The position numbers and the translations under genes are program-made. A stretch of DNA of 64,000 nt from an uncultured Candidatus Saccharibacteria bacterium (GTDB lineage Bacteria; Patescibacteriota; Minisyncoccia; Phycocordibacterales; JACOZG01), in contig CAZYXJ010000002.1 of assembly GCA_964651115.1 (NCBI GenBank), positions 48,338 through 112,337 of the forward strand. Reading direction: 5' to 3'. How positions within the stretch are numbered: the first letter of the stretch is position 1; the number at the start of each line of letters is the position of its first letter. Shown here piece by piece: positions 4,238-61,239 of the stretch. The notes below the pieces were generated by a model. It saw nothing but the letters and a program-made list of their open reading frames with translations. It was not told where the DNA came from and made no database searches.

Positions 4238-4238
4238 C

Positions 4239-4266
4239 TTGCCTTATTGTTTGGTTATTGTATAAT
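4239..4266 (+). promoter_or_regulatory. Sigma70-like promoter (TTGCCT-N16-TATAAT) upstream of the RNase P RNA
   Basis: A -35-like TTGCCT at 4239-4244 and a perfect TATAAT at 4261-4266 sit ~7 nt before the predicted 5' end of the RNA. Confidence 0.45.
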
Positions 4267-4272
4267 GCTAGT

Positions 4273-4580
4273 GTGCGGTGTTGAGTAATCGCTCTCACTC
4301 TCGGCTTAGCCGGTAGTGGGGGAGGAAAGTCCGAACACTCAGCTGTCTTTTGGCAACAAGGGTAGTGGTTAACGGCCACCGGGAGCAATCCTCGAGGTGC
4401 GAACAGAGACGAGTCTTCTGTCTTCGGGCAGAAGGGTGAAACGGCTAAATCCTTACCTGAGTGCAAGGCCGGACTCTCAAGTCCTCACGGATTTAGAGAG
4501 GGTGCCGCTTGATCCGTACGGTAACGTACTGGACAGATAAATGATTACCTAAAACAGAATTCGGCTTACGGACACCGCAC
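4273..4580 (+). ncRNA. rnpB: RNase P RNA (bacterial type, reduced size ~308 nt)
   Basis: Conserved P4 elements are present: GGAGGAAAGTCCG near the 5' end and ACAGAATTCGGCTTAC near the 3' end. A GGGTGAAACGGC motif is also present. Helix P1 pairs 5' GTGCGGTGT with 3' ACACCGCAC. No ORF covers this interval. Confidence 0.7.
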
Positions 4581-4592
4581 GTTTGCATCAGA

Positions 4593-4624
4593 CGCCCCGC
4601 CTATTTCGGCGGGGCGTTTGCTCG
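4593..4624 (+). terminator. Rho-independent terminator after rnpB
   Basis: The hairpin CGCCCCGCC-tatttc-GGCGGGGCG is followed by TTTGCTCGTTTG. Confidence 0.6.
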
Positions 4625-4655
4625 TTTGCCCATTTTCTCTTATGATTACAACATT

Positions 4656-6842
4656 ATGGATTCATCCTTGGTGCGTTCGCGCCCCGGCCTCTCGTTTAAT
4701 ACTCTGGCGCCTTTGATTTTGTCGGCGTTAGTGTTGGTTGTCCCGCTCTTAATTATCCCGGGTTGGCGGGGTGATTTGGAGGCCTGGCGTCGCCTGGTCG
4801 TGGTGGGGTTAGTTTTGTTGTCTGGCGGCGCTTGGACGATTGCTCGATTTCAGCGTGGTCGTTTAAGTTTGCCGTGGCATCCTTTGCTGGCGGCAACCGT
4901 GGCTTTGGCCCTGGCTCAAGCTTTGGCGGCGGCGTCAGTCGGTCCTTGGTTGTATGCGTTATGGGGCGGAGCTTTAGGTCCGGGATCAATTTTAAGTTGG
5001 CTCGGCTTCGCGCTTTCGGTTGCGCTTGGAGCTTACTATTTTAGTACGGCCGAGCGCATCCGTCAGTTAGTCGGCTTGGCCAGTTGGGGATTTGGGGCCG
5101 TGCTCGTGGCCGACACTTTAGCGCCGCTTACGGGCTTTCCCTTTATTGCAACCTTCGATGACCGCTTGCTGGTGCTGGGGTGGTTTATTTTTCTTAGTTG
5201 GTGGCTGATCACGAGAGCGACCACGAGGCGAGCTCGCTTCTTTGCTTGGCTGTTGTTTAGTTTGTCCTTGCTTTGGTGGCTTCTGACGGCTCGAGCGGTG
5301 TGGTTCCCCCTCATTTTAACTTTGGTGGGTTTGGGTTGGTGGTTGGCCCCTTGGATTATCGGCCAGCGAGCCAGGCGAGAAATGCGGCAACCTTTTGGTG
5401 TTTTAAGTGGATTGATGGTGGCCGCTTACGCTTTTTACTACGCTTTGCCTTTTGTGTTTGGTCGATTAGTTGGTTTCGTCGCGTCTCTCGGCTTGCCGGT
5501 TACTGGTCCCTTGCCCTGGTTGTGGTCGGGGAGAGTAATTGATGCCGCTTGGCGTCTTAAGCCGCTTACTGGCGTTGGCCTTTCGGCCGTACCGTCTCTG
5601 GTGGCGAGCCAGGGCGTAGGGACGATTGGTTGGTGGGCGGCTTGGTTGGCCGCTGGTGGGCTGGTGGTGGCCGCCGCTGCCTTGGCCTTGATTTTCTTTT
5701 GGTTGAGAACTTGGTGGCAGAGTCGCGTGCGGCCCAGTGACTCGGCGGGCGAAGCTGGTGAAGTGGCCTGGTTATTGGGGGCGTTGGTGGCTTGGAGTTG
5801 GTGTTCTTTGTTGGTGATTGCTCCCGGACTGCCATTTTTGATCTTGATCGCTCTCTTGACTGGAGCGTGGATCGGCTTATTAACCGCCGAACGGCGCCTT
5901 AACGTTAAAACTTGGGCCTTGGTTGATTCCTCGGGTCGCTTCCATCGAGCGTTTGGTGGTTTGGTATTGTTGGGCATTGTTTTGCTGGCGACCTTGGTGA
6001 TTAGTTTGCGAGTGGGCAGTGGTTTAGTTTTGGTAGAACGAGGTTTGCGTCTGGCTCCCATTAAAGAATCTCAAGCCGTGACCATGGTTACTAATGGTTT
6101 GCGTTTGGCGCCGAGCGATGAGCTGGCGAGATTGCTGGTGGATTGGCGTTTGCGCGAACTGGCTACGATGTCGTCGGCCACGACCACGACGGAGGAATTA
6201 AAGTTCCGCTTTAAGACCACGGCCGAGGCGGCCGTCGCCGCCGCGCGTCAGGCGCTCGTTTGGGCGCCTGACGCGCCAGCCAATTGGCTGGCGGCCGCTC
6301 GAGTTTCTGATGCTCTTGATTATTACGGCGTTGGCGGTGCCAAAGCGGAGGCCGAGGGGGCTTATGGTCAAGCGATTCGTTTGGCACCATACGATCTTAG
6401 TCCGGTGTTGTCGTGGGCTACGATGTTGGTGCGTCACCAAGAATCAGCGTCGGCCTTTAAATTATTGGAAGAATTTTTGGATCGCGTGCCCACCTCGGCG
6501 GCCGGTTTAGCCGCCTTGACGGAGTTGGCGGAGCGCCAAAATAATTTAAAGGTCGTTCTGGAGCGTTACGACCAGGCTCTCTCTCAGTCACCCCAAAATC
6601 CGGAATTGTGGTTCCAACGAGGATACGTCCATTATCGGCGCGGTGAATATTCTTTGGCCGTGACGGATCTGAGTCGGGCGTTAGAACTTTCACCTGGTTA
6701 CGCTAATGCTCTTTATTTCCGAGGATTGGGTTACCGCGCGCTCGGCAATCGGGCGGCCGCTTTGGCCGACTGGCAGTTAGTCAATCAGCTTAATCCTGGT
6801 TCGGCCGAGATCGAGGCCGCGTTAAAATCGCTCGACTCTTAA
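4656..6842 (+). CDS. Polytopic membrane protein with C-terminal TPR repeats (possible O-antigen ligase/polymerase-like)
   Basis: There are many hydrophobic helices rich in W, L and G. The C-terminal ~150 aa show TPR-like repeats (ELWFQRGYVHYRRGEYSLAVTDLSRALELSP, ALYFRGLGYRALGNRAAALADWQ). The ORF-track start at 4626 is a TTG lying inside the rnpB terminator T-tract, so the ATG at 4656 is preferred. Confidence 0.5.
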   Translation: MDSSLVRSRPGLSFNTLAPLILSALVLVVPLLIIPGWRGDLEAWRRLVVVGLVLLSGGAWTIARFQRGRLSLPWHPLLAATVALALAQALAAASVGPWLYALWGGALGPGSILSWLGFALSVALGAYYFSTAERIRQLVGLASWGFGAVLVADTLAPLTGFPFIATFDDRLLVLGWFIFLSWWLITRATTRRARFFAWLLFSLSLLWWLLTARAVWFPLILTLVGLGWWLAPWIIGQRARREMRQPFGVLSGLMVAAYAFYYALPFVFGRLVGFVASLGLPVTGPLPWLWSGRVIDAAWRLKPLTGVGLSAVPSLVASQGVGTIGWWAAWLAAGGLVVAAAALALIFFWLRTWWQSRVRPSDSAGEAGEVAWLLGALVAWSWCSLLVIAPGLPFLILIALLTGAWIGLLTAERRLNVKTWALVDSSGRFHRAFGGLVLLGIVLLATLVISLRVGSGLVLVERGLRLAPIKESQAVTMVTNGLRLAPSDELARLLVDWRLRELATMSSATTTTEELKFRFKTTAEAAVAAARQALVWAPDAPANWLAAARVSDALDYYGVGGAKAEAEGAYGQAIRLAPYDLSPVLSWATMLVRHQESASAFKLLEEFLDRVPTSAAGLAALTELAERQNNLKVVLERYDQALSQSPQNPELWFQRGYVHYRRGEYSLAVTDLSRALELSPGYANALYFRGLGYRALGNRAAALADWQLVNQLNPGSAEIEAALKSLDS

Positions 6843-6845
6843 TTT

Positions 6846-8525
6846 ATGGTGGCTCGCGTCTGGCGTTGGTTTACTCGAGAGTTTTCTAATCTGCACGAAG
6901 CGGCGTTGCTCTTGGGAGTGGCCGCCTTCTCCTCTCAACTTTTGGCGCTGATCCGCGATCGCTTATTGGCCGCCAACTTTGGCGCCAGTGGACAGTTGGA
7001 CGTTTACTACACGGCTTTCCGTTTGCCCGATTTGGTCTATGCCACGATTGCCTCTTTTGTCTCGGTGACTGTTTTGATTCCCTACGTCGTGACGGCTTTG
7101 ACGGAGGGTGATCGTGAGCGCGCGCGACGACTGCTTTCTAGTGTTCTGACGGCCTTTATGGCGGTGATGGTGGTGGCGATGGCGACGGTGTGGTTTTTGT
7201 TACCGTGGTTAGCGCCACGAATCGCTCCCGGCTTTGATCAAGAACAGTTGGCCTTGTTGGTGACTTATTCGCGGATCTTATTGTTTTCGCCCCTCTTTTT
7301 GGGTTTGTCTAACGTGTTGGGGGCGGTGACTCAGTCGGTGAGGCAGTTTTTTGTTTATGCCGCCAGTCCTCTTTTATACAATCTAGGGATTATTATTGGC
7401 GTGGTTTGGCTTTATCCACGCGTGGGACCGACGGGTTTGGTTTGGGGAGTGGTAATCGGGGCTTTTCTCCACGTGGCGATTCAGATCCCGGTGGTGTGGC
7501 GCGCCGGTGTCGCGCCACGTCTCGTTTGGCGTTTGAGTTGGTCGGAACTAGTAACGATTATTCGGACGTCGCTACCCCGCACTCTGGCTTTGGGGGCGCA
7601 TCAATTTACGTTGTTGATTTTGGTGGCCTTGGCTTCGGCGATTGGCGCGGGGGCCGTGTCGGTGTTTAATTTCGCGCTAAATTTGCAGTCGGTGCCGCTC
7701 TCGATTATTGGCGTGAGTTATTCGGTCGCCGCCTTCCCAACTTTGGCGCGTCTGTTTTCTAGTGGTCAGCGGGAGGAATTTTTGAGTCACGTAACGGGCG
7801 CTTTGCGCCACGTGTTATTTTGGTCTTTGCCGGCGACGGTGATGTTTATTGTTTTGCGGGCTCAGATTGTGCGAGTGATTTTGGGCAGTGGATCTTTCGA
7901 TTGGACGGCGACGCGTCTGACGGCCGCCGCGCTGGCCCTCTTCGTCCTGTCGGTTGCCGGACAGAATTTGATCCAATTATTTATGAGGGGCTATTACGCC
8001 TGCGGTCGGACGCGGCGGCCATTTGTGCTCAATGTGGTGGGGCTCTTGGTGTCGGTGGCGGCCGCGCCAGTGTTGGTCTGGTGCTTCCGTACGGCTCCCG
8101 GCTTTCGGGCGGTGGTCGAGAGAATTTTGCGGGTTGATGCCGTCGAGACCACGGCTATTTTGATGTTGCCACTGGCCTTTAGTTTGGGCGTGGCGGTTAA
8201 CGTTAGTTTGTACTGGTATTTTTTCCAAAAAGATTTTGGGCGTTTTTCGCGAGTGGTGGATCGAGCCTTAGGGCAGTCGGCGCTCGGCTCGTTGGTGGCC
8301 GGAGTGGTGACTTACCAGGTGTTGGGTTGGCTGGCGCCGCTGGTTAATCAAAATACTTTTTCGGGGATTTTTGTTCAGGGGGTGGCGGCCGGATTGGCTG
8401 GATTGGTCACCCTCATTATTATCTTGCGAGGCTTTAATAACCGAGAAATTAATGAGATCGAAACTTCGTTACGGCATAAGTTTTGGCGGGCCAAGCCCAT
8501 TGCCCCCGACCCCGAAGGGTTGTAG
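6846..8525 (+). CDS. murJ: Lipid II flippase MurJ (MviN)
   Basis: The N-terminal motif LIRDRLLAANFGASGQLDVYYTAFRLPDL matches MurJ. The protein is ~559 aa with 14-TM-like hydrophobicity. Confidence 0.8.
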   Translation: MVARVWRWFTREFSNLHEAALLLGVAAFSSQLLALIRDRLLAANFGASGQLDVYYTAFRLPDLVYATIASFVSVTVLIPYVVTALTEGDRERARRLLSSVLTAFMAVMVVAMATVWFLLPWLAPRIAPGFDQEQLALLVTYSRILLFSPLFLGLSNVLGAVTQSVRQFFVYAASPLLYNLGIIIGVVWLYPRVGPTGLVWGVVIGAFLHVAIQIPVVWRAGVAPRLVWRLSWSELVTIIRTSLPRTLALGAHQFTLLILVALASAIGAGAVSVFNFALNLQSVPLSIIGVSYSVAAFPTLARLFSSGQREEFLSHVTGALRHVLFWSLPATVMFIVLRAQIVRVILGSGSFDWTATRLTAAALALFVLSVAGQNLIQLFMRGYYACGRTRRPFVLNVVGLLVSVAAAPVLVWCFRTAPGFRAVVERILRVDAVETTAILMLPLAFSLGVAVNVSLYWYFFQKDFGRFSRVVDRALGQSALGSLVAGVVTYQVLGWLAPLVNQNTFSGIFVQGVAAGLAGLVTLIIILRGFNNREINEIETSLRHKFWRAKPIAPDPEGL

Positions 8526-17064: not shown

Positions 17065-17091
17065 CAGATTAAAATTAAAATTATAAAAAGT

Positions 17092-17164
17092 GGGCGATAC
17101 AGGACTCGAACCTGTGACCTTTTCTACGTCAAAGAAACGCTCTAGCCAACTGAGCTAATCGCCC
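17092..17164 (-). tRNA. tRNA-Val (anticodon GAC)
   Basis: The reverse complement folds with acceptor GGGCGAT/ATCGCCC, anticodon loop TTGACGT and T-arm ACAGGTTCGAGTCCTGT. Confidence 0.85.
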
Positions 17165-17179
17165 ATTGCCGCGGGGGCG

Positions 17180-17268
17180 GGCGGAGGCGAGAGGATTTGA
17201 ACCTCTGAGGGGCTTTCGCCCCTGCCGCGTTTCGAATGCGGTGCCTTCAACCACTCAGCCACGCCTCC
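17180..17268 (-). tRNA. tRNA-Ser (anticodon CGA), long variable arm
   Basis: The reverse complement reads GGAGGCGTGGCTGAGTGGTTGAAGGCA... with anticodon loop TTCGAAA. The long extra arm (GGCAGGGGCGAAAGCCCCTC) and the T-arm GAGGTTCAAATCCTC fit a serine tRNA. Confidence 0.8.
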
Positions 17269-17433
17269 AGGGTTACGGCTGTAATCCTATCATCTTTTTG
17301 CCAAAAGCTCAAAAGATGCTATATTTTAGGCGCACGAGCCAGATAGCGGCCCTATCGTCCCTGCCTGCGCAGGCAGGTAATGGCTAGTGACATTCCGGAT
17401 AAAACAAAAAGAACTGTTTCGTAAATAATATAA

Positions 17434-17505
17434 GGCCCTATCGTCTAATGGCTAGGACATCACCCTCTCACGGTGGTAATCGGGGTTCGACTCCCCGTAG
17501 GGTCA
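17434..17505 (+). tRNA. tRNA-Glu (anticodon CTC)
   Basis: The 5' end reads GGCCCTATCGTCTAATGGCTAGGACA. The anticodon loop CTCTCAC sits on stem TCACC/GGTGG, and the T-arm is CGGGGTTCGACTCCCCG. Confidence 0.8.
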
Positions 17506-17672
17506 CAGGATCAAAAAAGATGTAGCCGGAGGTTACGTCTTTTTGCATCCCTAGTGATCTCTTGGCCGAGAGAGTTGAAAGTCACAGTCCGCCAGGGGGC
17601 GGACGAGGCGGGGTCGAGCAATCCGCCAGCGGGGCGGATATGCGTGACCACAGATTTTGATATAGTTATAAA

Positions 17673-18329
17673 ATGAAATTATTACTCACTTCAGCCGGAA
17701 TAACCAATAAATCTCTGGCAAATGCCCTGCTTGAGCTTACGGGTAAACCTTTCGAGGAAACCTCAATTGTTTTCATTCCTACCGCTTCAAATGTTGAAAA
17801 AGGTGATAAAGGCTGGCTGATTGATAACTTAGTTCAGCTTCAAAACCTAAACTTTAAACAAATTGAAATTGTCGATATTTCTGCTGTTCCCGACAGGGTT
17901 TGGAGGCCCAAGCTCGAAGAGGCCGATGTGCTTTTCTTTGGAGGCGGTAACACTTATTACTTAATGGAATGGTTGAATAAGTCCGGCCTTACTAAGCTTC
18001 TGCCCGAACTTCTCAAAACCCGTGTGTATTTAGGTGTGAGTGCGGGAAGTATGGTTACAAACCCTGATTTAGCTCTCAAGCTTTCTCAGGTGGTATATGG
18101 AGAAGATTTGGATAAGATGGAAGATGTGGATGGCTTAGGGTATGTAGATTTTTACTTCTTGCCCCATCTTAACTCTGAGTACTTTGTAAATCTTAGGAAA
18201 AAGAATATCGAAGAAGTTTCTACTGGAATGACCGCAAAGATTTATGCGATGGATGATGCTTCTGGTTTGAAAATCGTTGATGGAAACATAGAAATTGTCA
18301 GCGAAGGTGAATATCTAGAATTTAATTAA
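17673..18329 (+). CDS. Peptidase E-like (S51 family dipeptidase)
   Basis: The GGGNTYYL and GVSAGSMV motifs and the overall colinearity match PepE. The local GC (~40%) is well below the window average. Confidence 0.7.
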   Translation: MKLLLTSAGITNKSLANALLELTGKPFEETSIVFIPTASNVEKGDKGWLIDNLVQLQNLNFKQIEIVDISAVPDRVWRPKLEEADVLFFGGGNTYYLMEWLNKSGLTKLLPELLKTRVYLGVSAGSMVTNPDLALKLSQVVYGEDLDKMEDVDGLGYVDFYFLPHLNSEYFVNLRKKNIEEVSTGMTAKIYAMDDASGLKIVDGNIEIVSEGEYLEFN

Positions 18330-18355
18330 TAGACGAGGTCTGGAAAAATTAGAAG

Positions 18356-18745
18356 ATGATAAATCCTTCACGTGGGCTTAAAATAATCATCTTAGCTACT
18401 TTGTTTATTGTGGCTGGATTTCTCTTAAGCGGTAAATCAAGCGCCGTTACTCCTTCCGTGGCCAATGTTGAAGTAAATAATACTCCCCTGATAATAGATC
18501 ACGGGCAATCTATTCCCGATTATTATCCAACGAAGAAAACGGTCAGCGGTAATAATTACTCAAATGCTGAACCTCAGAAATCTGTTATGGGCCCAAGTAC
18601 GAATGGCGATAAAGACTGCAAAGACTTTAGTACTCAGCTTGAGGCGCAGACCTATTTTGACTTTAATGGTGGCAGTCTTGTCAACAACGTGGACAAATTA
18701 GATGGTCCAGATCGCGATGGGAAGGTTTGCGAAAGCTTACCGTAA
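18356..18745 (+). CDS. Excalibur calcium-binding domain protein (secreted)
   Basis: The N-terminal signal/TM is followed by a C-terminal DKDCKDFSTQLEAQTYFDFNGG...DGPDRDGKVCESLP segment, a close match to the Excalibur signature (DxDxDGxxCE). Confidence 0.7.
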   Translation: MINPSRGLKIIILATLFIVAGFLLSGKSSAVTPSVANVEVNNTPLIIDHGQSIPDYYPTKKTVSGNNYSNAEPQKSVMGPSTNGDKDCKDFSTQLEAQTYFDFNGGSLVNNVDKLDGPDRDGKVCESLP

Positions 18746-48060: not shown

Positions 48061-48477
48061 ATGGAGAAGGGAGAACTTAAGGCCAGGCTCGAGAGAGCTC
48101 TTCGTCGCACGGAGAAAGTGCCCCGGCAGCTCGTGGTCATGTTTCCGGATCATCCTCAACTTAACGAAATGATGAGGGTGTTGTCTGGCGACGAGCAGAA
48201 GGAATTTCTGCAGCTCTTTGTGAGAGCTTGGCGGCTGGGGGCGAGGGAGGTATTTGTGGAAATCTTGCCCTGGCTCAATAGCCACAAGTTCAAGTGGAGC
48301 ATGGTAGAGGCTTCCGGTAACGAGCTCCACTTCCATTCCTGCGCTGACGACGGCTTGGTCGTCTGTGAGTGTTCACTAAGTTCGTCGAGTTCTTTGGCGG
48401 GGCTCGACGCTCGGGTTCCTCTTAGGAAGACCCTTTTCTGGGTGGCGGGTCGCTCCCAAGACCTACCCATTTTCTAG
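48061..48477 (+). CDS. Hypothetical protein (138 aa), foreign-looking codon usage
   Basis: It has a strong RBS (AAAGGAGGGAGAGCAATGG). Codon usage is rich in CTC/AGG/AGA, unlike the core genes. No family was recognised. Confidence 0.4.
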   Translation: MEKGELKARLERALRRTEKVPRQLVVMFPDHPQLNEMMRVLSGDEQKEFLQLFVRAWRLGAREVFVEILPWLNSHKFKWSMVEASGNELHFHSCADDGLVVCECSLSSSSSLAGLDARVPLRKTLFWVAGRSQDLPIF

Positions 48478-48568: not shown

Positions 48569-48727
48569 ATGTCGCAAGACCAACTCATCAAGCTCGCCTG
48601 CCAGAAGTGCAAGCGAATCAATTACTGGAGCCGCAAGAACCGCAAGACGGTGGAGCGGAAGATTGAGCTTAAAAAGTATTGCCGCTGGTGCAAGGCTCAT
48701 AAACCCCATAAAGAGATTAAAAAATAA
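48569..48727 (+). CDS. rpmG: 50S ribosomal protein L33 (52 aa, below the ORF-track size cutoff)
   Basis: The translation MSQDQLIKLACQKCKRINYWSRKNRKTVERKIELKKYCRWCKAHKPHKEIKK has the two CxxC zinc-ribbon pairs and the NY..KN...+ELKKYC motif of bL33. Confidence 0.7.
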   Translation: MSQDQLIKLACQKCKRINYWSRKNRKTVERKIELKKYCRWCKAHKPHKEIKK

Positions 48728-48733
48728 TTTCAG

Positions 48734-48764
48734 AAAAAGTCCCCGCTCGGGGACTTTTGTTTTA
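48734..48764 (+). terminator. Rho-independent terminator after rpmG
   Basis: The hairpin AAAAAGTCCCCGctcGGGGACTTTT is followed by GTTTT. Confidence 0.6.
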
Positions 48765-48794
48765 GCGCAAAATCGGCTACTATGGGGCCAATCA

Positions 48795-48868
48795 GGGCCT
48801 GTAGTTTCAATGGTAAAACATCGGTCTCCAAAACCGAGGTTCTCGGTTCGAATCCGAGCGGGCCCGCC
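48795..48868 (+). tRNA. tRNA-Trp (anticodon CCA)
   Basis: It folds with acceptor GGGCCTG/CGGGCCC, anticodon loop CTCCAAA on stem TCGGT/ACCGA and T-arm CTCGGTTCGAATCCGAG. Confidence 0.8.
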
Positions 48869-49031
48869 CCAAATATCTGTTATTGGCAGATCTGAGTGCC
48901 TTGGGGCACTTGTTTGTTGAAAACGATCAGATGGCATCTACTCAACATGTAAATACTGAGCAGATGTCATGCCCATGTTGGTAGCATCTCCTTGCAAAAA
49001 AGTACACCGCGGCTTATACTCATTTATACCT

Positions 49032-49667
49032 ATGCTTGATCACCTGAACGAGAACGACAAGAAGGCCTACGCCCTAATCCGCAACCGTCTCGTGCACGGC
49101 ATGGAGGCCCCCACCCTCAGGGAGATAAATGAGGTGACCGGGAAAGCTTCGCCGCGGTCGGCCGTGCTGGCGCTTGAGCGCCTTGAGCGCGCCGGGCTTA
49201 TCCGCCGCGCCGGAAGAAAGATCCGCCTGACCAGACCGAGCCTCGCATCGAACGCCTCGGTATCGACCGTGAATGTTCCGCTCGTCGGCAGCATCGCGGC
49301 TGGCGCACCGATCCTCGCAGAGGAGAACGTCGAGGCGGTGATTCCGGTTTCGACCGCGCTCGCTCGGCCGGGATCGAAGTACTTCCTGCTCCGCGTTTCC
49401 GGAACGTCGATGAACGAAGCAAAGATTGATGGTTCGAAGATAGAGGGCGGCAGCATCGTGCTCGTGCGCCAGCAGAATTCCGCTGACGACGGACAGGTGG
49501 TTGTCGCGCTCATCAACGACGAAGCAACGGTGAAGATACTCGAACGCAAGAACGGCGTCGTCATCCTCCGCCCGAAGTCGTCTGACCAGCATTCGCCGAT
49601 CGTATTAACAGATAACTGCGCTATTCAGGGCGTGGTGGTGGGAGTCCTGCCGCCCGGCCTGCTCTAA
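49032..49667 (+). CDS. lexA: LexA-like S24-family transcriptional repressor (island-borne)
   Basis: An N-terminal wHTH is followed by an S24 peptidase domain with GSIAAGAP (cleavage-site region), VSGTSM (catalytic Ser) and KIL (catalytic Lys). The start was moved to the ATG at 49032. The ORF-track start is 48969. Confidence 0.7.
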   Translation: MLDHLNENDKKAYALIRNRLVHGMEAPTLREINEVTGKASPRSAVLALERLERAGLIRRAGRKIRLTRPSLASNASVSTVNVPLVGSIAAGAPILAEENVEAVIPVSTALARPGSKYFLLRVSGTSMNEAKIDGSKIEGGSIVLVRQQNSADDGQVVVALINDEATVKILERKNGVVILRPKSSDQHSPIVLTDNCAIQGVVVGVLPPGLL

Positions 49668-49671
49668 ACAT

Positions 49672-49899
49672 ATGGCAAAGAACATCCACACCGTATTCAA
49701 CTCCGACAAGCACCGCTGGGAGAACAAGTCCGAGGGAAGCGCGAAGCCCCTCTCGTGGCACCGCACCAAGGATAACGCGGAAGACCGCGCCCAGGACATC
49801 GCGGAGAACAAGAAGGTCGAGCATTTTATCCATGGTAAAGACGGAAAGATCCAGGAGCGCAACAGCTACGGGAACGATCCATTCCCGCCTCGCGGCTAA
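49672..49899 (+). CDS. DUF2188 domain protein
   Basis: The W.HRTKDNAEDRAQDIAENKKVEHFIHGKDGKIQE pattern is typical of DUF2188. It sits 5 nt after lexA. Confidence 0.5.
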   Translation: MAKNIHTVFNSDKHRWENKSEGSAKPLSWHRTKDNAEDRAQDIAENKKVEHFIHGKDGKIQERNSYGNDPFPPRG

Positions 49900-49904
49900 C
49901 ACCC

Positions 49905-50327
49905 ATGGAATCGAAATTGAAACACCTTGAATTCATTCAGGACGCCATCAAACGGATGGCGGGCAACTCATTCCTGCTCAGGGGGTGGAGTATCACCTTG
50001 GTGATTGCGATCTTCACTCTTGCCAGCCAGACCTACCGGCCGATCTACGTTTGGATCGCCCTTTTTATAACGGTGGTGTTCTGGCTTCTCGACTCGTACT
50101 ACCTCCGTCAGGAACGCCGCTTCCGCTGCCTCTACGAGATAGTCCGGGTGAAAGACCCTGGGAGCATCGACTTCTCGATGTCGCTCCCGAAGAAACACTG
50201 CAGCAACTGCAGCTGGTTCTCGGCAGCCAGATCCCCCATCTTTACCGTGTTCTACGGATTAATAACCATGATCTTGATCGCGATCCTGCTCGGGATCTAC
50301 CTCAATATCTCAATAACCCTAAAATAA
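49905..50327 (+). CDS. Small 2-3 TM membrane protein (hypothetical)
   Basis: A 140 aa ORF has hydrophobic helices GWSITLVIAIFTLA, IYVWIALFITVVFWLL and FTVFYGLITMILIAILLGIYL. It is tightly packed in the cassette. Confidence 0.45.
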   Translation: MESKLKHLEFIQDAIKRMAGNSFLLRGWSITLVIAIFTLASQTYRPIYVWIALFITVVFWLLDSYYLRQERRFRCLYEIVRVKDPGSIDFSMSLPKKHCSNCSWFSAARSPIFTVFYGLITMILIAILLGIYLNISITLK

Positions 50328-50330
50328 TTT

Positions 50331-50975
50331 ATGGCCCGAAAAATATTCTTCAGTTTCCATTATGAGCGCGATGCTTGGCGAGCCGGCCAGGTTCGCAACA
50401 GCGACTTGCTCCCTAACGAGGATGAACGCGGATTCATCGACGCAGCGGCATGGGAGGAAATAAAGCGCAAAGGCGATGCGGCGATTCAGAACTGGATCAA
50501 CGAGCAGCTTGAAGGCACCTCGGTCACAGTCGTTCTAATTGGAGCAGAAACCTCGCAACGCCCGTGGGTTGATTACGAAATCCGCACCAGCTGGGAGCGA
50601 GGCAATGCCATCATCGGCCTCTACATCCACGGCGTGAAAGATCAGGAGAGCAAGACTGACACGAAGGGCGCAAATCCTCTCGACGGCATCTATCTCGCTG
50701 ACGGGCAGCCACTCTCAAGCGCATGCAAGACTTATGACTGGGTTCTCAACGACGGGCGCAACAATCTCGGCGGCTGGGCAGATCTCGCTGCAAAGGAACG
50801 CGCAGAGTACAAGGGCGAAACTAAGCTCAAGGTCGGAGCGGTAAAGGGCTTGGTGCCGCCTCCAACCCGCCCGACAACTCCGGGACTTATTAATCCGACC
50901 ATGCCACGAACCGCGCCCAACACAGGCTTCGTGCCTCATTCTCCGCATTCGGACTATGCTGACGGAGAGCGATAA
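50331..50975 (+). CDS. TIR-like domain protein (ThsB-like / DUF1863-type)
   Basis: The N-terminus MARKIFFSFHYERDAWRAGQVRN, then GTSVTVVLIGAETSQRPWVDYEIRTSWERGNAIIGLYIHG, matches my recollection of the conserved blocks of the MTH538/ThsB TIR-like family. A Pro-rich C-terminal tail follows. Confidence 0.6.
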   Translation: MARKIFFSFHYERDAWRAGQVRNSDLLPNEDERGFIDAAAWEEIKRKGDAAIQNWINEQLEGTSVTVVLIGAETSQRPWVDYEIRTSWERGNAIIGLYIHGVKDQESKTDTKGANPLDGIYLADGQPLSSACKTYDWVLNDGRNNLGGWADLAAKERAEYKGETKLKVGAVKGLVPPPTRPTTPGLINPTMPRTAPNTGFVPHSPHSDYADGER

Positions 50976-51660
50976 GCAGTGGCTGGCGGAAAACTATCCG
51001 AATCTTTCGGTCGAATCAGATAACCGGGTTTTTGGCGAGGTGCCGTTCGTTGCGACCTACAACGCTGAGACTGGACGGTTTTTGCAGATTACTCCTGACG
51101 TCGTAGACGGCGTGGGAGGATTGCGACTGTCCGGAACATTTTGTATCGCCATAGCAGAGCGAACTACGACGCCTAACTCGCGCCTGCCGGCGCTCACCGT
51201 CGAAGGAGTTGATACGCTGCCGGATCGCCACTTCAACCAGTCTGACCTCAGCGCCTGCATGTGCAATCCTCTCGAGGAAGACGAATATCTAGAGCCTGCG
51301 TTCGATTTTCAGAGATACTTCAAGGAGTTGGTGATCCCGTTTCTTTACGGCCAGCTGTGCTATTCACAAGAGACGCGATGGCCTTGGTTCGACTACGCAC
51401 ATGGTGGCGTAGGGACAATTGAGGCGTTCTCCAAAAATCCCACACCAGCCAAAGCGGAGGAATGTATCGGAATCATCTCGCGCGAAATCCGTCTGTGGCC
51501 GCTAGTTAAACGGTTGCTGCTACAGACGGGTGACATAAAGGGACACGCTCCATGCCTGTGTCCGAAGCGCGATCATTTACGGCGATGCCATCCTGTAGCG
51601 CTTACAGGTTTGAGGCTTCTAAGGGACGCGGTGAAAACGCACAAGATCCAGCTCCCGTAA
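50956..51660 (+). CDS. Hypothetical Cys-rich protein, translationally coupled to the TIR-like gene (candidate effector/sensor partner)
   Basis: A 234 aa ORF overlaps the TIR gene by 20 nt. Its Cys/His clusters (CMCNP, CYSQ, HAPCLCPKRDHLRRCHP) suggest metal binding. No family was recognised. Confidence 0.4.
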   Translation: MLTESDKQWLAENYPNLSVESDNRVFGEVPFVATYNAETGRFLQITPDVVDGVGGLRLSGTFCIAIAERTTTPNSRLPALTVEGVDTLPDRHFNQSDLSACMCNPLEEDEYLEPAFDFQRYFKELVIPFLYGQLCYSQETRWPWFDYAHGGVGTIEAFSKNPTPAKAEECIGIISREIRLWPLVKRLLLQTGDIKGHAPCLCPKRDHLRRCHPVALTGLRLLRDAVKTHKIQLP

Positions 51661-51710
51661 AAGTGACACATGAATGTCCCGTTTCAGTGTCACTTTTGTA
51701 ACTTTTCAAA
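51661..51710 (+). terminator. Rho-independent terminator ending the cassette
   Basis: The 10-bp stem AAAGTGACAC...GTGTCACTTT is followed by TGTAACTTTTCAAAAAA. Confidence 0.55.
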
Positions 51711-51830
51711 AAACCAGCTAGCGACCCGGGTGCCTCGGCAAACCCCAGGTGGATGCGCTAGAATACCCTTGTAAACACTCACCTCACGGGTACTAATCCC
51801 GAATGGCCCGCCAAGAAGTGTTAAATTTTA

Positions 51831-51873
51831 AAAAAGATTTCCCCCAGGCAGTTATCTGCGCTGGGGGATGGGG
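51831..51873 (-). terminator. Repeat copy A: hairpin terminator abutting the stop of the 51875-52450 gene
   Basis: On the minus strand the sequence reads CCCCATCCCCCAGCGCAGATAACTGCCTGGGGG followed by AAATCTTTTTT. It is near-identical to copy B at 52537-52587. Confidence 0.5.
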
Positions 51874-51874
51874 C

Positions 51875-52450
51875 TTATGGATGGTCGCGGAGGGAGTTGA
51901 GAAAGGCGGTCATTTCATTCATCGTTCTTTGTTGGAAGTCTTTTGTTCCGGTCAAGTTGATTACCTCTTCGGGAAGCTCGTGCCAACTTTCGGCTCCAGC
52001 ATCGCAGAGGGTAATAATGTGATCAAAAATCTCAAAATTCCCCACGGCCGAGCAGGTTTCTATTCCTGCCCGGGTAAGTCCTTGCCACCGAGGGCGACCC
52101 ACGATCACTGTTAGATTTGGGAACTTTTGACGGTTCGTCGAATTTTGTATCAGTGCCCTAAGCCTTTCTGCTTCCATAAAAGCGTTTTTAGCAGTCCACT
52201 GAGATTCCACTTCATCCACTTCAGCTTTAGCCACAACAAGCCTAGCTGGGGCGAGCTGGATAAAGGGGAAGTATTTCCGCCAATTTTTTGACTCCTGGTC
52301 CGTTTCTTCGTGAGTTACATAACGGCAATTTTTGATGTGGAATCCGTGTTGGCAGAGGGGGGTGAGCAGATCAATTAGGGGTTTGCTAAATCCTTTTTCC
52401 CTCAGCCATTTTTGGCTCGCTTTCTCGGGCAGAAGCGCCTTTGTGTTCAT
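51875..52450 (-). CDS. Hypothetical protein, paralog A (191 aa)
   Basis: It shares a W(K/R)(H/K)(Y/F)FPFI.L block and the N-terminal pattern with the 52588-53121 product. Its lower GC and AAA/AGG codons look foreign. Confidence 0.4.
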   Translation of the reverse strand: MNTKALLPEKASQKWLREKGFSKPLIDLLTPLCQHGFHIKNCRYVTHEETDQESKNWRKYFPFIQLAPARLVVAKAEVDEVESQWTAKNAFMEAERLRALIQNSTNRQKFPNLTVIVGRPRWQGLTRAGIETCSAVGNFEIFDHIITLCDAGAESWHELPEEVINLTGTKDFQQRTMNEMTAFLNSLRDHP

Positions 52451-52536
52451 TTCAATGTTCTCCTTGGGTAAGGTTTGGAATTTTGCTCCTGGCTTCTAAA
52501 CTATTCTTTTAAAAACATTTGTCAATTTTATTTTTT

Positions 52537-52587
52537 TAAAAAAGATTTCCCCCAGAGCAGTTTTCTGCGCTGGGGGATGGGGGGGGG
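52537..52587 (-). terminator. Repeat copy B: hairpin terminator abutting the stop of the 52588-53121 gene
   Basis: The core is the same as copy A (AAAAAGATTTCCCCCAGAGCAGTTTTCTGCGCTGGGGGATGGGG) with an extended G-run. Confidence 0.5.
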
Positions 52588-53121
52588 TTACTTGGTCGGG
52601 AGATTGTCCATGAGCCACTTGCCGAAGGCCACCAATTCTTTACGGCCCCGCTCTTGGAATCTTTTCCGTTTGGTTGGATTGTTATATTCGCGCGGAATTT
52701 TGGCCACCCAGGGTCCGCCCCGGTCACAGAGGGTCAGGTACCAGGCCAGATGTTCTGGAGAAGGTGTTGGCCGTTGACCGTAGATTTTTCCTCGGTGAAC
52801 CTCAAGATCCTTTTTGAATTTGTGGTTAAAGCGGTCCACCAGGTCTGACAGCCGATGGAACTGTCTTTCGTCATTGTCGTCGATGCGTGGCAGTGAGGTG
52901 AAGGTTATGACCGACCCTCGATATGTACCCTCGACTGGCTCGTTGGTTGTCAGGGTTATGAAAGGGAAATGTTTCCAACGTGCGCCCAGCACCGTAAATC
53001 GATGGTAGAAAAGAGCTTCCACCGCATCCCTTAGTGGGTGAGTGGAGCCCATTTTTTGCAACAGGGGGTTTTGGGGCAGATAGCATTTCATCCTTTCGAT
53101 GAAAAGTTCTTGAGGAGACAA
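52588..53121 (-). CDS. Hypothetical protein, paralog B (177 aa)
   Basis: See paralog A. It is divergent, but the shared blocks and the duplicated 3' hairpin indicate a tandem duplication. Confidence 0.4.
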   Translation of the reverse strand: MSPQELFIERMKCYLPQNPLLQKMGSTHPLRDAVEALFYHRFTVLGARWKHFPFITLTTNEPVEGTYRGSVITFTSLPRIDDNDERQFHRLSDLVDRFNHKFKKDLEVHRGKIYGQRPTPSPEHLAWYLTLCDRGGPWVAKIPREYNNPTKRKRFQERGRKELVAFGKWLMDNLPTK

Positions 53122-53232
53122 GTTTATTCCCTTTCAGTAAGAGTTTGATGGTTCAGTTCTGGTTTTTAAATTACTACTTATTAAAATAATGTCAAGTGCC
53201 GGCTGGGGTGAGGCTTTGGTATACTACACTCC

Positions 53233-53916
53233 ATGGCAACTACCGAAGTAAAAAAATTATGGGCCATTATGGCTCTCGTTTTGTTGGCGATCGTCGCCTT
53301 ATTGATTGTGGCGGTAACCTCGGGCAATCGACGGGGGCCCTCTATTTTGGAGCCCCTCACTCTTAGTCAGCCGGTAGTGGCTGGTGAGTGGACGGCCGGT
53401 CTGGCCTCAAGTTCGGTGGCGGTGGTTGAGTACAGCGACTTCCAGTGTCCGGCCTGTGCCACTTATGCTCCGGTGGTTAAGCAGTTGATTGCGGATTATG
53501 GTGATCGAATTTCGGTTACTTACCGCCATTTCCCACTCGCCATTCATCCCAACGCGACCGCGGCGGCGGCGGCGAGTGAGGCGGCCGGGTTGCAGGGCAA
53601 GTTTTGGGAAATGGCCGACGTCTTGTTTGAACGTCAGGCGGACTGGTCCGCCACGCGCGCGCCCGAAGAACTTTTCCTTTCTTATGCCCAGACTTTGGGT
53701 CTAAGCGTCGAGCGTTTTGCGGCCGATCTTAATTCCACCGCGGTCAAGCAAGCGGTGGCTGATGATCTGGCTTCGGCTAACGCCACCGGTCTTAGTCATA
53801 CCCCAACCTTCTTTATTAACGGCCAAGAAATCGATAATCCAAAATCTTATGACGAATTTTCTGCCTTGGCGGAAGCGGCCCTTGGCTCTACCAGCGCCAC
53901 GACGACTGCCCGATAG
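53233..53916 (+). CDS. DsbA-family thiol:disulfide oxidoreductase (membrane-anchored)
   Basis: An N-terminal TM helix is followed by a thioredoxin fold with CPAC (SDFQCPACATYAPVVKQL). Confidence 0.7.
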   Translation: MATTEVKKLWAIMALVLLAIVALLIVAVTSGNRRGPSILEPLTLSQPVVAGEWTAGLASSSVAVVEYSDFQCPACATYAPVVKQLIADYGDRISVTYRHFPLAIHPNATAAAAASEAAGLQGKFWEMADVLFERQADWSATRAPEELFLSYAQTLGLSVERFAADLNSTAVKQAVADDLASANATGLSHTPTFFINGQEIDNPKSYDEFSALAEAALGSTSATTTAR

Positions 53917-53947
53917 GCGCCCGTTGATCCTAACTCTTGTTTTGGCG

Positions 53948-54325
53948 ATGATCGGTTTTATTGATGCCGCCTATTTGGCGGTCTATCATTTTCTCGGTGA
54001 GGTGGTCCCCTGTGCTTTGACGAGTGGCTGTGAGGCCGTTACGACGAGTCGTTTTGCCACCATCGGTCCGGTACCGGTGGCGATCCTGGGAGTGATTTAT
54101 TATGGTTTGATTTTGTTTCTTGGGGCTCATCTTTTGCACTCACGATCTCGGGCCGTGGCTTCGTGGCTGGCGCTGGTCACCGCTCTTGGTTTTGCGTTCT
54201 CGCTCTACCTAATTTTCTTGCAGGCGACGATCATTAATGCTTTTTGTTTTTATTGTTTGGTCTCCGCGACTGTAAGCATTTGTTTGTTTGTGGTGTCGTT
54301 TTTCTTAAAACGCGCTACACTGTAG
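53948..54325 (+). CDS. Vitamin K epoxide reductase (VKOR) family protein
   Basis: A CxxC appears in the first loop (VPCALTSGCEAV) and a TxxxSRxA-like segment is present. A C-terminal CFYC lies in a TM helix. The start may instead be the TTG at 53924. The ORF-track start at 53717 overlaps dsbA and was rejected. Confidence 0.55.
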   Translation: MIGFIDAAYLAVYHFLGEVVPCALTSGCEAVTTSRFATIGPVPVAILGVIYYGLILFLGAHLLHSRSRAVASWLALVTALGFAFSLYLIFLQATIINAFCFYCLVSATVSICLFVVSFFLKRATL

Positions 54326-60873: not shown

Positions 60874-61239
60874 ATGAGTCCGAAAAAGTTTATCTACAAT
60901 AATCAAAAGTTTAAAGAACGCCGAAGGGAACTTAGAAAAAATCAGACTAGGGTTGAGGGGATTTTATGGCAACACATTCGCGGTGGTAAGTTAAATGGAT
61001 TCAAGTTTTATCGTCAATACAGCGTTGGACCATATATCTTAGATTTTTATTGTCCTAAAATTAGACTAACCATAGAGCTTGATGGTAAATCCCACGAGTC
61101 CAAGGATGCAGAGAATTACGATCAAGAACGTACGGATTACTTGTACAATAACGATATCAAAGAAATTAGGTTTAAAAATGTTGAGGTGTTAGAAAACGTC
61201 CGGGGCGTTATCGAGAAAATTTCCCTTCTCTTAAGGTAA
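60874..61239 (+). CDS. DUF559 endonuclease-domain protein (Vsr/restriction-endonuclease-like fold)
   Basis: RRELRKNQTRVEGILWQHIRGGKLNGFKFYRQYSVGPYILDFYCPKIRLTIELDGKSH matches the DUF559 signature. The gene is ~37% GC against ~57% for the window. Confidence 0.7.
   Translation: MSPKKFIYNNQKFKERRRELRKNQTRVEGILWQHIRGGKLNGFKFYRQYSVGPYILDFYCPKIRLTIELDGKSHESKDAENYDQERTDYLYNNDIKEIRFKNVEVLENVRGVIEKISLLLR

Follow-up and report, generated by a model that had tools for sequence, protein, structure and literature searches.

A probable damage-inducible, E2-equipped Thoeris-like cassette acquired downstream of tRNA-Trp in a candidate phyla radiation bacterium

The window analyzed here, a stretch of 64,000 nucleotides of contig CAZYXJ010000002.1 from an uncultured Candidatus Saccharibacteria bacterium, carries directly 3′ of its tRNA-Trp gene five plus-strand genes that encode, in order, a LexA-type repressor, a DUF2188 protein, a small membrane protein, a ThsB-type TIR protein, and an E2 of the kind known from CBASS, the antiphage systems that signal by means of cyclic oligonucleotides. 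The host is a bacterium of the candidate phyla radiation (CPR)/Patescibacteria, whose nearest ClpB among 185,579 species genomes is 63% identical. The best overall explanation, to which we give a probability of roughly 70%, is that these genes form an acquired, damage-inducible cassette resembling type V Thoeris, in which conjugation of the TIR tail by the E2 serves as a control. The window and its relatives show what the genes are and how they are packed into an operon; they also show that the cassette is mobile, that E2 and TIR are recurrently linked, that their partners share a tail motif, and that tail and E2 are transferred together. A sequence-only reading of this DNA had described a compositionally foreign island of ~4.3 kb at this site; an acquired cassette 3′ of tRNA-Trp is indeed supported, but its size and right boundary had to be revised, and the cargo, a LexA-linked, E2-equipped Thoeris system, is of more interest than the island itself. 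The TIR appears to be under the control of the E2, a combination that is well established for CBASS synthases and that we did not see described for TIR systems; likewise, the literature searched yielded no account of a lone-E2 Thoeris or the tail motif of E2 partners.

The five genes are packed into one tight operon, in which the first four lie 4, 5, and 3 nt apart and the TIR and E2 genes share 20 nt, and hairpin terminators lie on both sides of it. The one after tRNA-Trp is a terminator-like hairpin followed by a T-run (48893..48922, plus strand; terminator scan, fold -18.1 kcal/mol, z = -2.9), which would close the rpmG/tRNA-Trp transcription unit ahead of the cassette, and the one after E2, at the operon end, is a hairpin with a U-rich tract (51658..51707, plus strand; fold -18.5 kcal/mol, z = -4.75). 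The TIR protein of 214 aa (50331..50975, plus strand) consists of a TIR core (aa 1-160) and a C-terminal tail (aa 161-214), and matches Pfam ThsB_TIR (5.4e-26; 91.3 bits against a cutoff of 21.2) as well as the PADLOC models ThsB (1.3e-64) and PDC-M50B (4e-60). Its Glu83, in the segment VDYEI (50568-50582; WVDYEI), is invariant in the TIR alignment, and we take it to be the equivalent of the catalytic TIR Glu, going by published ThsB work. This segment aligns with RWVRYEI of Bacillus cereus ThsB (Table S1 of bioRxiv 10.64898/2025.12.03.692087), and in the same table a TIR domain ~90% identical to that of the window is labeled "DUF2270 - Type V."

The gene that follows the TIR, which the sequence-only reading had left among the unknowns, in fact encodes a CBASS-type E2 of 234 aa (50956..51660, plus strand), and its first nucleotides coincide with the final 20 nt of the TIR gene. 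It has no Pfam match, but seven PADLOC models for CBASS "E2" match it, down to 1.5e-18. The protein comprises a core like that of ubiquitin-conjugating (UBC) enzymes, with invariant His92 (51226-51240) and Cys101 (51250-51264), and a helical C-terminal extension bearing a C-x-C...C-H knuckle (51553-51591). The E2 stands alone here, with the UBC fold and the catalytic Cys and nearby His, and is accompanied by neither an E1 nor a JAB protein.

Directly upstream of the TIR lies the gene of a 140-aa membrane protein with three long helices (TM140; 49905..50327, plus strand), which matches PADLOC PDC-M50A (2.5e-45) and has 455 homologs and no Pfam family. In its AlphaFold2 model (pLDDT 84.8), helices span residues 2-43, 46-82, and 111-132; the hydrophobic segments are conserved, and the polar residues H7, Q12, R17, N21, D63, and E70 are invariant. 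TM140 is predicted to be a signal-gated membrane effector like ThsF. A membrane protein of this type is found directly upstream of the TIR in 15 nonredundant E2 loci, and it also adjoins a ThsB TIR in two loci that lack E2 (L102 and L103; such handles denote the related loci). The Pfam search gave TM140 no DUF2270 (PF10028) match at E <= 0.1; among 30 members of its family, six matched DUF2270 (best E 0.0047) and 18 matched DUF3278 (best E 3.9e-5), all under the curated thresholds, and the type V label for the effector of the window is thus provisional. The remaining small gene, 4 nt downstream of lexA, encodes an accessory protein of 75 aa (49672..49899, plus strand) that matches Pfam DUF2188 (3.9e-17) and PADLOC PDC-S16 (3.8e-27) and is 76% identical to its counterparts at the same position in L088-90. 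DUF2188 has been listed as a putative Thoeris-associated effector (bioRxiv 10.64898/2025.12.03.692087).

Homologs of the E2 at 70-90% identity are numerous. A metagenome scan, with annotation by purpose-built hidden Markov models (HMMs) and ARAGORN, added 80 E2 loci and brought the total to 69 nonredundant ones. The gene upstream of E2 encodes a TIR in 51 of these, a SMODS CD-NTase (cGAS/DncV-like nucleotidyltransferase) in nine, and another nucleotidyltransferase-like protein in three, with the remaining six cut by the contig end. Among the 51 TIR-E2 loci, the membrane protein precedes the TIR in 15, and E2 is followed by a second TIR and ThsA in at least 10; SAVED effectors were detected in six of the nine SMODS-E2 loci. 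Among the more distant members of the family are two that belong to classical E2-CBASS operons, one (L091, E2 58% identical) consisting of a helix-turn-helix (HTH) protein with an M78 protein, SAVED, SMODS, E2, and a recombinase and the other (L099, E2 43% identical) of an S24 repressor, SAVED, SMODS, and E2. The family also occurs in a type I Thoeris operon (L095), in which HTH/M78, TIR, E2, a second TIR, and a SIR2-STALD ThsA follow one another on a contig that one source labels as a Halobacteriota archaeon. As a separate observation, type I Thoeris with E2 (TIR, E2, second TIR, SIR2-STALD ThsA, and a divergent HTH plus M78) is common in peat and soil metagenomes (L095-L098, L138, L144-L149, L163-L170, and L178), and there the E2 tail is present on the first TIR only.

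The tail itself is the other recurrent feature of these loci. In the TIR of the window it is a proline-rich stretch of ~55 residues that carries G199-FVPHSPHS (50925-50951), and the consensus G-F-x-P-[RHK]-S-P-[WH]-[CS] is shared by the ends of all 60 nonredundant E2 partners, 48 TIRs and 12 nucleotidyltransferases, in which the successive positions are held by G in 52, F in 59, P in 60, [RHK] in 57, [SA] in 56, P in 58, [WH] in 60, and [CS] in 58. The tail Phe lies 15-16 residues from the C terminus in 50 of the 60 partners. The motif is missing from the second TIRs of the same operons and likewise from the TIRs of the E2-less membrane protein-TIR pairs that were compared, such as the 160-aa TIR of L103. 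In L109-112, the SMODS proteins terminate with ...TTPGLINP..TSNTGFVPHSPHSDYANGER, which is near-identical to the TIR tail of the window, and the nucleotide homology between the window and these CD-NTase-E2 loci starts at 50872, in the first codons of the tail, and continues through E2; tail and E2 were therefore inherited as a unit and recombined onto two unrelated enzyme classes. In L151, L161, and L173, E2 follows nucleotidyltransferase-like proteins of 327-355 aa to which the SMODS HMM is silent and which bear the same tail (e.g., ...EGFAPRSPWASEDAN); they may represent a further enzyme class or very divergent CD-NTases.

The first gene of the operon, read from its longest ORF at 48969..49667 (plus strand), encodes a repressor with a winged HTH and an S24 autopeptidase domain, and its probable start is M22 at 49032, which would give a protein of 211 aa. 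The earlier description of an S24 repressor was correct as to the domain (Pfam Peptidase_S24, 1.3e-26) but too narrow, because the protein also matches LexA_DNA_bind (3.6e-6) and scores 145.3 bits against NCBIfam TIGR00498, whose cutoff is 110.95, and is thus a full LexA-type protein rather than a plain S24 repressor. It retains the LexA motifs: IAAGAP (49293-49310) contains the Ala-Gly cleavage site, SGTSM (49398-49412) supplies the nucleophilic Ser, and ATVKIL (49524-49541) supplies the Lys of the dyad. The palindrome CAGATGGCATCT (48928-48939) is among the five CAGAT half-sites of the control region at 48874..49020 (plus strand), and a promoter-like element found by the promoter scan, TTGCAA-17-TATACT (48992-49020, plus strand), is situated just upstream of the probable LexA start. 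CAGAT/ATCTG occurs five times in 164 nt, each time within 48874-48995, against an expectation of 0.23, a ratio to be read with the post hoc choice of the motif in mind, and CAGATG overlaps the -35 element TTGACA upstream of the LexA genes in L113 and L122. The CAGAT sites are a candidate operator of the LexA-type repressor.

In close relatives, a LexA-type gene always adjoins the cassette, divergently in L081-87 and, as here, in the same direction and together with DUF2188 in L088-90. L081 and L085 have different upstream neighborhoods yet share LexA, the membrane protein-TIR-E2 block, and a recombinase, which means that in these loci the LexA-type gene moves along with the cassette. The LexA-type neighbors in L081-87 and L088-90 all pass the TIGR00498 cutoff as well, and for this reason the protein of the window is best read as the cassette's own regulator. 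Across the family, a regulator that is either LexA-like or M78 was found upstream in 24 of the 31 E2 loci with more than 3 kb of upstream sequence, the HTH plus M78 pair and the LexA-type repressor occupying the same position interchangeably.

These features can be assembled into the following scheme. The LexA-type protein would repress its own promoter via the CAGAT-type sites until self-cleavage stimulated by RecA removes it, and the operon would thereby be induced by DNA damage or by phage replication. The TIR would sense infection and convert NAD+ into a cyclic ADP-ribose-type signal, as its homology to characterized Thoeris systems suggests, and by analogy with type V Thoeris the signal might be 3′ cyclic ADP-ribose (3'cADPR). 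The shared tail, the shared E2 family, and the biochemistry of E2-CBASS point to the binding of the TIR tail at G-F-x-P-[RHK]-S-P-[WH]-[CS] by the E2, which would act through Cys101 and His92. The E2 probably removes the last 15-16 residues of the TIR after G199 and links the new C terminus covalently, and such conjugation might prime or multimerize the TIR, as the Serratia E2 does with cGAS. The signal would then gate an oligomeric TM140, and the resulting membrane collapse would bring about abortive infection, that is, death or arrest of the cell before phage release. A wider generalization is offered more tentatively, at somewhat less than even odds: a lone E2 of the CBASS type and a C-terminal "handle" of ~35 residues (ending in the motif and ~7 further residues) might constitute a portable regulatory module that was joined to at least two unrelated classes of immune synthase, TIRs and CD-NTases. 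There would then be an undescribed but broadly distributed "E2-Thoeris" class, whose effectors would be type I-like or type V-like and which would be present in CPR bacteria, in archaea, and in soil and peat metagenomes; its E2 would cut off a propeptide of 15-16 residues and conjugate or multimerize the TIR, and many copies would be wired to the SOS response through a LexA of their own.

Comparison with relatives supports the view that an accessory cassette was acquired directly 3′ of tRNA-Trp. The tRNA-Trp(cca) gene (48795..48868, plus strand; ARAGORN) forms the left edge of the island and begins 67 nt downstream of rpmG (48569-48727, plus strand), and the gene content listed by the sequence-only reading was confirmed. 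In L002, the relative with 61% ClpB identity, the order ClpB, tRNA-Tyr, rpmG, tRNA-Trp is kept, and tRNA-Trp is followed by a small cupin gene and miaA, with no cassette; miaA occurs in the window 6.5 kb farther on. Conversely, the membrane protein-TIR-E2 block recurs elsewhere at 72-90% aa identity, compared with only 63% for the nearest ClpB. Gene by gene, these relatives share 85-90% (TIR), 72-82% (E2), and 49-86% (membrane protein) aa identity and 73-78% nucleotide identity with the window, and their flanks are unrelated to it. Nucleotide homology to L081-87 covers exactly 49904-51636, and that to L088/L113 covers 49671-49988 and 50326-51736; blastn homology stops at 51736, and the shared DNA therefore ends ~76 nt past the E2 stop.

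The composition of the window agrees with this picture and restricts the extent of the island. GC skew is strong strand-wide, with G3 > C3 (third codon positions) in plus-strand genes and C3 >> G3 in minus-strand genes, and cumulative skew climbs over all 64 kb. A leave-one-out log-likelihood ratio of synonymous codon usage, computed for 25 resident plus-strand and 19 resident minus-strand genes, separates the two sets with zero overlap (+0.137 +/- 0.043, minimum 0.042, against -0.128 +/- 0.042). None of the five cassette genes scores like a resident plus-strand gene, their values being, in order, -0.024, -0.043, -0.147, -0.053, and +0.045; lexA, the most GC-rich gene of the region (0.597), is thus also non-native by its codons. 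The shift to C-ending codons that had been described for the plus-strand genes was reproduced (C3 0.38-0.46 versus ~0.24 in resident plus-strand genes), as was the onset of the change directly 3′ of tRNA-Trp: no other 2-kb window of the 64 kb has a GC skew as low as that of 48969-50975 (-0.041; mean +0.106, sd 0.055), the GC content of this stretch (0.565) is in the top 0.5%, and the tetranucleotide distance across 48751-52000, the second highest in the window, has z = 2.7-2.8 whether or not the strands are symmetrized. GC alone is only mildly deviant over the island (0.530 versus 0.523 for the window) and departs far more strongly in other genes, at 60874-61239 (0.36) and 17673-18745 (~0.40). 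The anomaly did not, however, extend to 53130 as had been claimed, because z drops to ~1 for 49751-52750 and to ~0.3 past 50751, and because the minus-strand genes at 51875-53121, which had been called foreign too, score -0.095 and -0.120, in the typical range of resident minus-strand genes. The deviant composition is confined to the five plus-strand genes at 48,969-51,660. The island runs from 48,869 to ~51,740, its right end lying between 51737 and ~51812 since the two minus-strand genes are codon-native ORFans, and measures ~2.9 kb rather than 4.3 kb.

Other copies of the cassette occupy comparable sites. It starts 70-88 nt past two different tRNA-Ser genes (L081/L108 and L085/L114), and its CBASS version in L115 starts 144 nt past tRNA-Arg. 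In each of these tRNA-adjoining contexts (L108, L114, and L115), a large serine recombinase is encoded on the opposite strand after E2; when TIR-type and CBASS-type islands are compared, their recombinases share 66-86% identity, and a recombinase of this kind follows E2 in 7 of 41 related loci. The notion that a tRNA 3′ end served as the integration target thus gains comparative support, but the window itself offers neither an attachment site nor an integrase. Integrase-mediated insertion at tRNA-Trp is accordingly suggested by analogy. A sequence at 51789..51812 (plus strand) is weakly similar to the last 24 nt of tRNA-Trp (17/24), but it is not statistically supported as the remnant of an attachment site and was rejected (p ~0.08 within its own intergenic region alone), and stronger chance matches to the 3′ half of tRNA-Trp fall inside the dsbA and E2 genes. 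Strain heterogeneity at the island edge was also considered, in view of a Logan contig (L106, SRR14271372) that ends exactly at 51812, and was dropped because L107 spans 51555-52516 unbroken; that the end of L106, which corresponds to 51812-53200 of the window, meets the end of the tRNA-Trp-like 24-mer is probably a coincidence. The proximity of dsbA/VKOR to the cassettes in L085 (4910-5929), L091 (9654-10385), and the window (53233-54325) was discarded as a sign of a shared hotspot, the proteins being only 32-35% identical, and likely reflects coincidence or a very old neighborhood. A repeat of the bordering tRNA-Ser was not found in the available sequence of L081 or L085. The tRNA-Ser at the border of the L081 cassette (6115-6204) has the anticodon ACT, which is unusual in bacteria, versus TGA for its equivalent in L085, and may be a variant or island-associated tRNA.

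Several points weigh against the explanation we favor. The synteny comparison relies on one distant relative, L002. No recombinase or remnant of one was detected in the window by tblastn with three related serine recombinases, and no significant repeat of the tRNA-Trp 3′ end was found on either strand of 48.9-56.4 kb; insertion at tRNA-Trp therefore rests on analogy and composition, and the route is unproven, as the sequence-only reading had already conceded after seeing no clean repeat at the far boundary. The GC content of the cassette tracks that of each host, which means that the transfers were not very recent and that the "foreign" composition here is mostly missing strand bias. Alternatively, the LexA-type gene may be the sole lexA of the host. 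The conserved Gly of the tail lies 16-17 residues from the C terminus, unlike the penultimate Gly of Serratia cGAS, and for this reason the motif may serve for docking and not for cleavage. Since the effector is not a DUF2270 member at threshold, both its assignment to type V and the choice of 3'cADPR as the signal are extrapolated, and one type V variant is reported not to be triggered by 3'cADPR (bioRxiv 10.64898/2025.12.03.692087).

The strongest competitor, which we nevertheless consider unlikely, is that the region is the stump of a decayed temperate element, a prophage or satellite in which the S24 protein was a CI-like phage repressor and the membrane protein-TIR-E2 block a superinfection-exclusion module placed between repressor and recombinase. 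The large serine recombinase after E2 in related loci fits such an origin, as do the terminase large subunit and N6/N4 methyltransferases that adjoin the cassette in L088-90 and L099-100 and the matches of the membrane protein and DUF2188 to PHROG families and of the S24 domain to phage repressor PHROGs. In the window, however, neither phage genes (structural, replication, or recombinase) nor their remnants occur, a search of 2.9 million IMG/VR viral contigs turned up no relative of the E2, and the winged HTH of the repressor is of the LexA type, with a score above the LexA equivalog cutoff. Moreover, a phage origin would differ from the acquired Thoeris-like cassette in the vehicle only and not in what the cassette does.

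A slightly less probable alternative accepts the cassette but wires it differently, with the TIR as an NAD+-depleting killer, the membrane protein as its anchor or sensor, and the E2 as an inhibitor acting like an antitoxin, a brake on the TIR. The unresponsive type V system mentioned above is compatible with this arrangement, the cytoplasmic loop that TM140 could offer for ligand binding has only ~45 residues, and NAD+-depleting TIRs, standalone or as effectors, are common (bioRxiv 10.64898/2025.12.03.692087). Against it, the same family of E2-tailed TIRs occurs in type I Thoeris operons with SIR2-STALD ThsA, in which the TIR is the signal maker, the ~90% identical TIR of the preprint belongs to a cluster assigned there to signaling Thoeris, and the invariant polar and charged residues of TM140 are of the kind expected in a ligand pocket. 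It is, finally, very improbable that the block is native and vertically inherited and owes its codon bias to a recent flip against the direction of replication, because, even though the anomaly is chiefly one of reversed or absent strand bias and not of GC, TM140 (-0.147) scores like a minus-strand gene, and the cassette follows host GC, a flipped native block should score about -0.13 uniformly and not span -0.147 to +0.045 over five genes, the same block recurs at high identity with unrelated flanks and at other tRNAs, L002 lacks it at the conserved tRNA-Trp site, and the tetranucleotide z of 2.7-2.8 remains after strand symmetrization.

Downstream of the cassette lie two minus-strand ORFs (51875-52450 and 52588-53121), followed from 53233 by dsbA, VKOR, and ndh, just where these core-type genes had been said to resume. 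The two ORFs are tandem, weak paralogs (25% identity, E 7e-8), each followed by a 48-nt element made up of a hairpin and a T-run (51826-51873 and 52535-52582); the two elements are 81% identical, and conservation is thus far higher in the terminator than in the coding regions. Neither ORF has homologs in protein sets of 5.8 billion and 1.84 billion sequences or matches in Pfam, NCBIfam, PADLOC, or PHROG. We treat the pair as lineage-specific resident genes outside the island, and their membership in its cargo was rejected on the basis of their native codon usage.

Apart from the cassette, the strand-wide mutational bias of the window is unusually strong and can reveal, with high sensitivity, genes that were inserted or inverted recently. 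Upstream of the island, an ORF of 138 aa (48061-48477, plus strand) occupies the 600-nt gap between tRNA-Tyr and rpmG, which measures 40 nt in L002; it has no Pfam or PHROG match and a codon score of 0.040, at the very bottom of the plus-strand range, and might represent a second tRNA-adjoining insertion of small size, again on the 3′ side. A DUF559 gene with the Vsr-like endonuclease fold (60874-61239, plus strand) has a GC content of 0.36 in a genome of 0.52, deviates far more than the island does, and is probably another foreign gene. At 17673-18745 (plus strand), a peptidase S51 gene and an unknown gene of 129 aa form a patch of low GC (0.40-0.42, with 0.38 at third codon positions) just past tRNA-Glu and the tRNA cluster at 17090-17506. 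The top tetranucleotide deviation in the window is found at ~4000-8500, a stretch that takes in MurJ, a TPR protein of 738 aa, and the end of a class II ribonucleotide reductase, and a gene of 128 aa resembling pilins of type IV secretion systems (PF18895; 35606-35992, plus strand) has a low GC content of 0.43.

If the proposed function is correct, a CPR bacterium with a reduced genome would possess a multilayered abortive-infection system under transcriptional, conjugative, and second-messenger control. Ubiquitin-like control of immune synthases is established for CBASS, while in Thoeris it has been noted only in its Cap2/Cap3 form, and the service of one E2 family and one tail to both TIRs and CD-NTases suggests a testable rule for how such enzymes gain post-translational control, with the tail motif as a defined peptide target for mutation. 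For annotation, the loci delineate a family of tRNA-adjacent islands that are bounded by a serine recombinase and hold Thoeris-type and CBASS-type cargo in equivalent positions.

Comparison with known systems places the cassette among several of them. It resembles other tRNA-adjacent islands in starting within ~100-160 nt of a tRNA 3′ end, in its deviant composition and accessory cargo, and in the recombinase that its relatives carry at the far end; it differs in that this recombinase is a large serine recombinase and not a tyrosine integrase, and in that the window has no direct repeat or recombinase. Among the PADLOC candidates, PDC-M50 (A and B) and PDC-S16 correspond to it in part, TM140 and the TIR matching PDC-M50A and PDC-M50B, and DUF2188 matching PDC-S16, but PDC-M50 comprises two genes, neither of them for an E2 or a regulator; no mention of PDC-M50 was found in the literature searched. 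As for control, CapH/CapP (HTH plus M78 protease, attributed to Lau et al. in 2022) and CapW (attributed to Blankenchip et al. in 2022) are reportedly damage-responsive regulators of CBASS. The cassette shares with them a repressor that would be inactivated by proteolysis and lies upstream of a signaling operon, but its repressor is of the self-cleaving LexA/S24 type, in contrast with the HTH protein that is cut by a partner metalloprotease in CapH/CapP.

Type V Thoeris, as described by Yirmiya et al. from the Sorek laboratory, consists of ThsB and ThsF, a DUF2270 effector with three transmembrane segments that responds to 3'cADPR (bioRxiv 10.64898/2025.12.03.692087). The window likewise has a ThsB-type TIR that adjoins a small protein of three membrane helices, its TIR domain is ~90% identical to the type V entry of Table S1, and the expected logic is the same, a cyclic ADP-ribose isomer made by the TIR opening a membrane assembly; it departs from type V in the addition of E2, the ~55-aa TIR tail, DUF2188, and the LexA-type regulator, and in an effector that falls below the Pfam DUF2270 threshold. 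The same preprint noted Thoeris operons with Cap2 (E1-E2) and Cap3 (JAB) and a Gly-containing TIR tail. These, too, join the ubiquitin-like conjugation machinery of CBASS to a TIR whose C-terminal tail has a conserved Gly, but they use an E1-E2 fusion and a deconjugating peptidase, in contrast with the lone E2 and different tail motif of the window. A close parallel for the proposed control is E2-CBASS (type II "short"; Serratia marcescens CdnG-E2, PDB 8hsb), in which the E2 (Cys101, His87) cuts the C terminus of cGAS after a conserved Gly and forms thioester and isopeptide links, giving poly-cGAS chains that activate signaling (PMC12948482; bioRxiv 10.1101/2022.05.25.493364). The E2 of the window is only 12% identical to the Serratia enzyme and larger (234 versus ~160 aa), with an extra helical domain and the C-x-C...C-H knuckle, and the Gly of its partner is located 16-17 residues from the end instead of being penultimate. 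Above all, that partner is a TIR and not a CD-NTase, and the system of the window is therefore not a member of E2-CBASS, although it would work like one.

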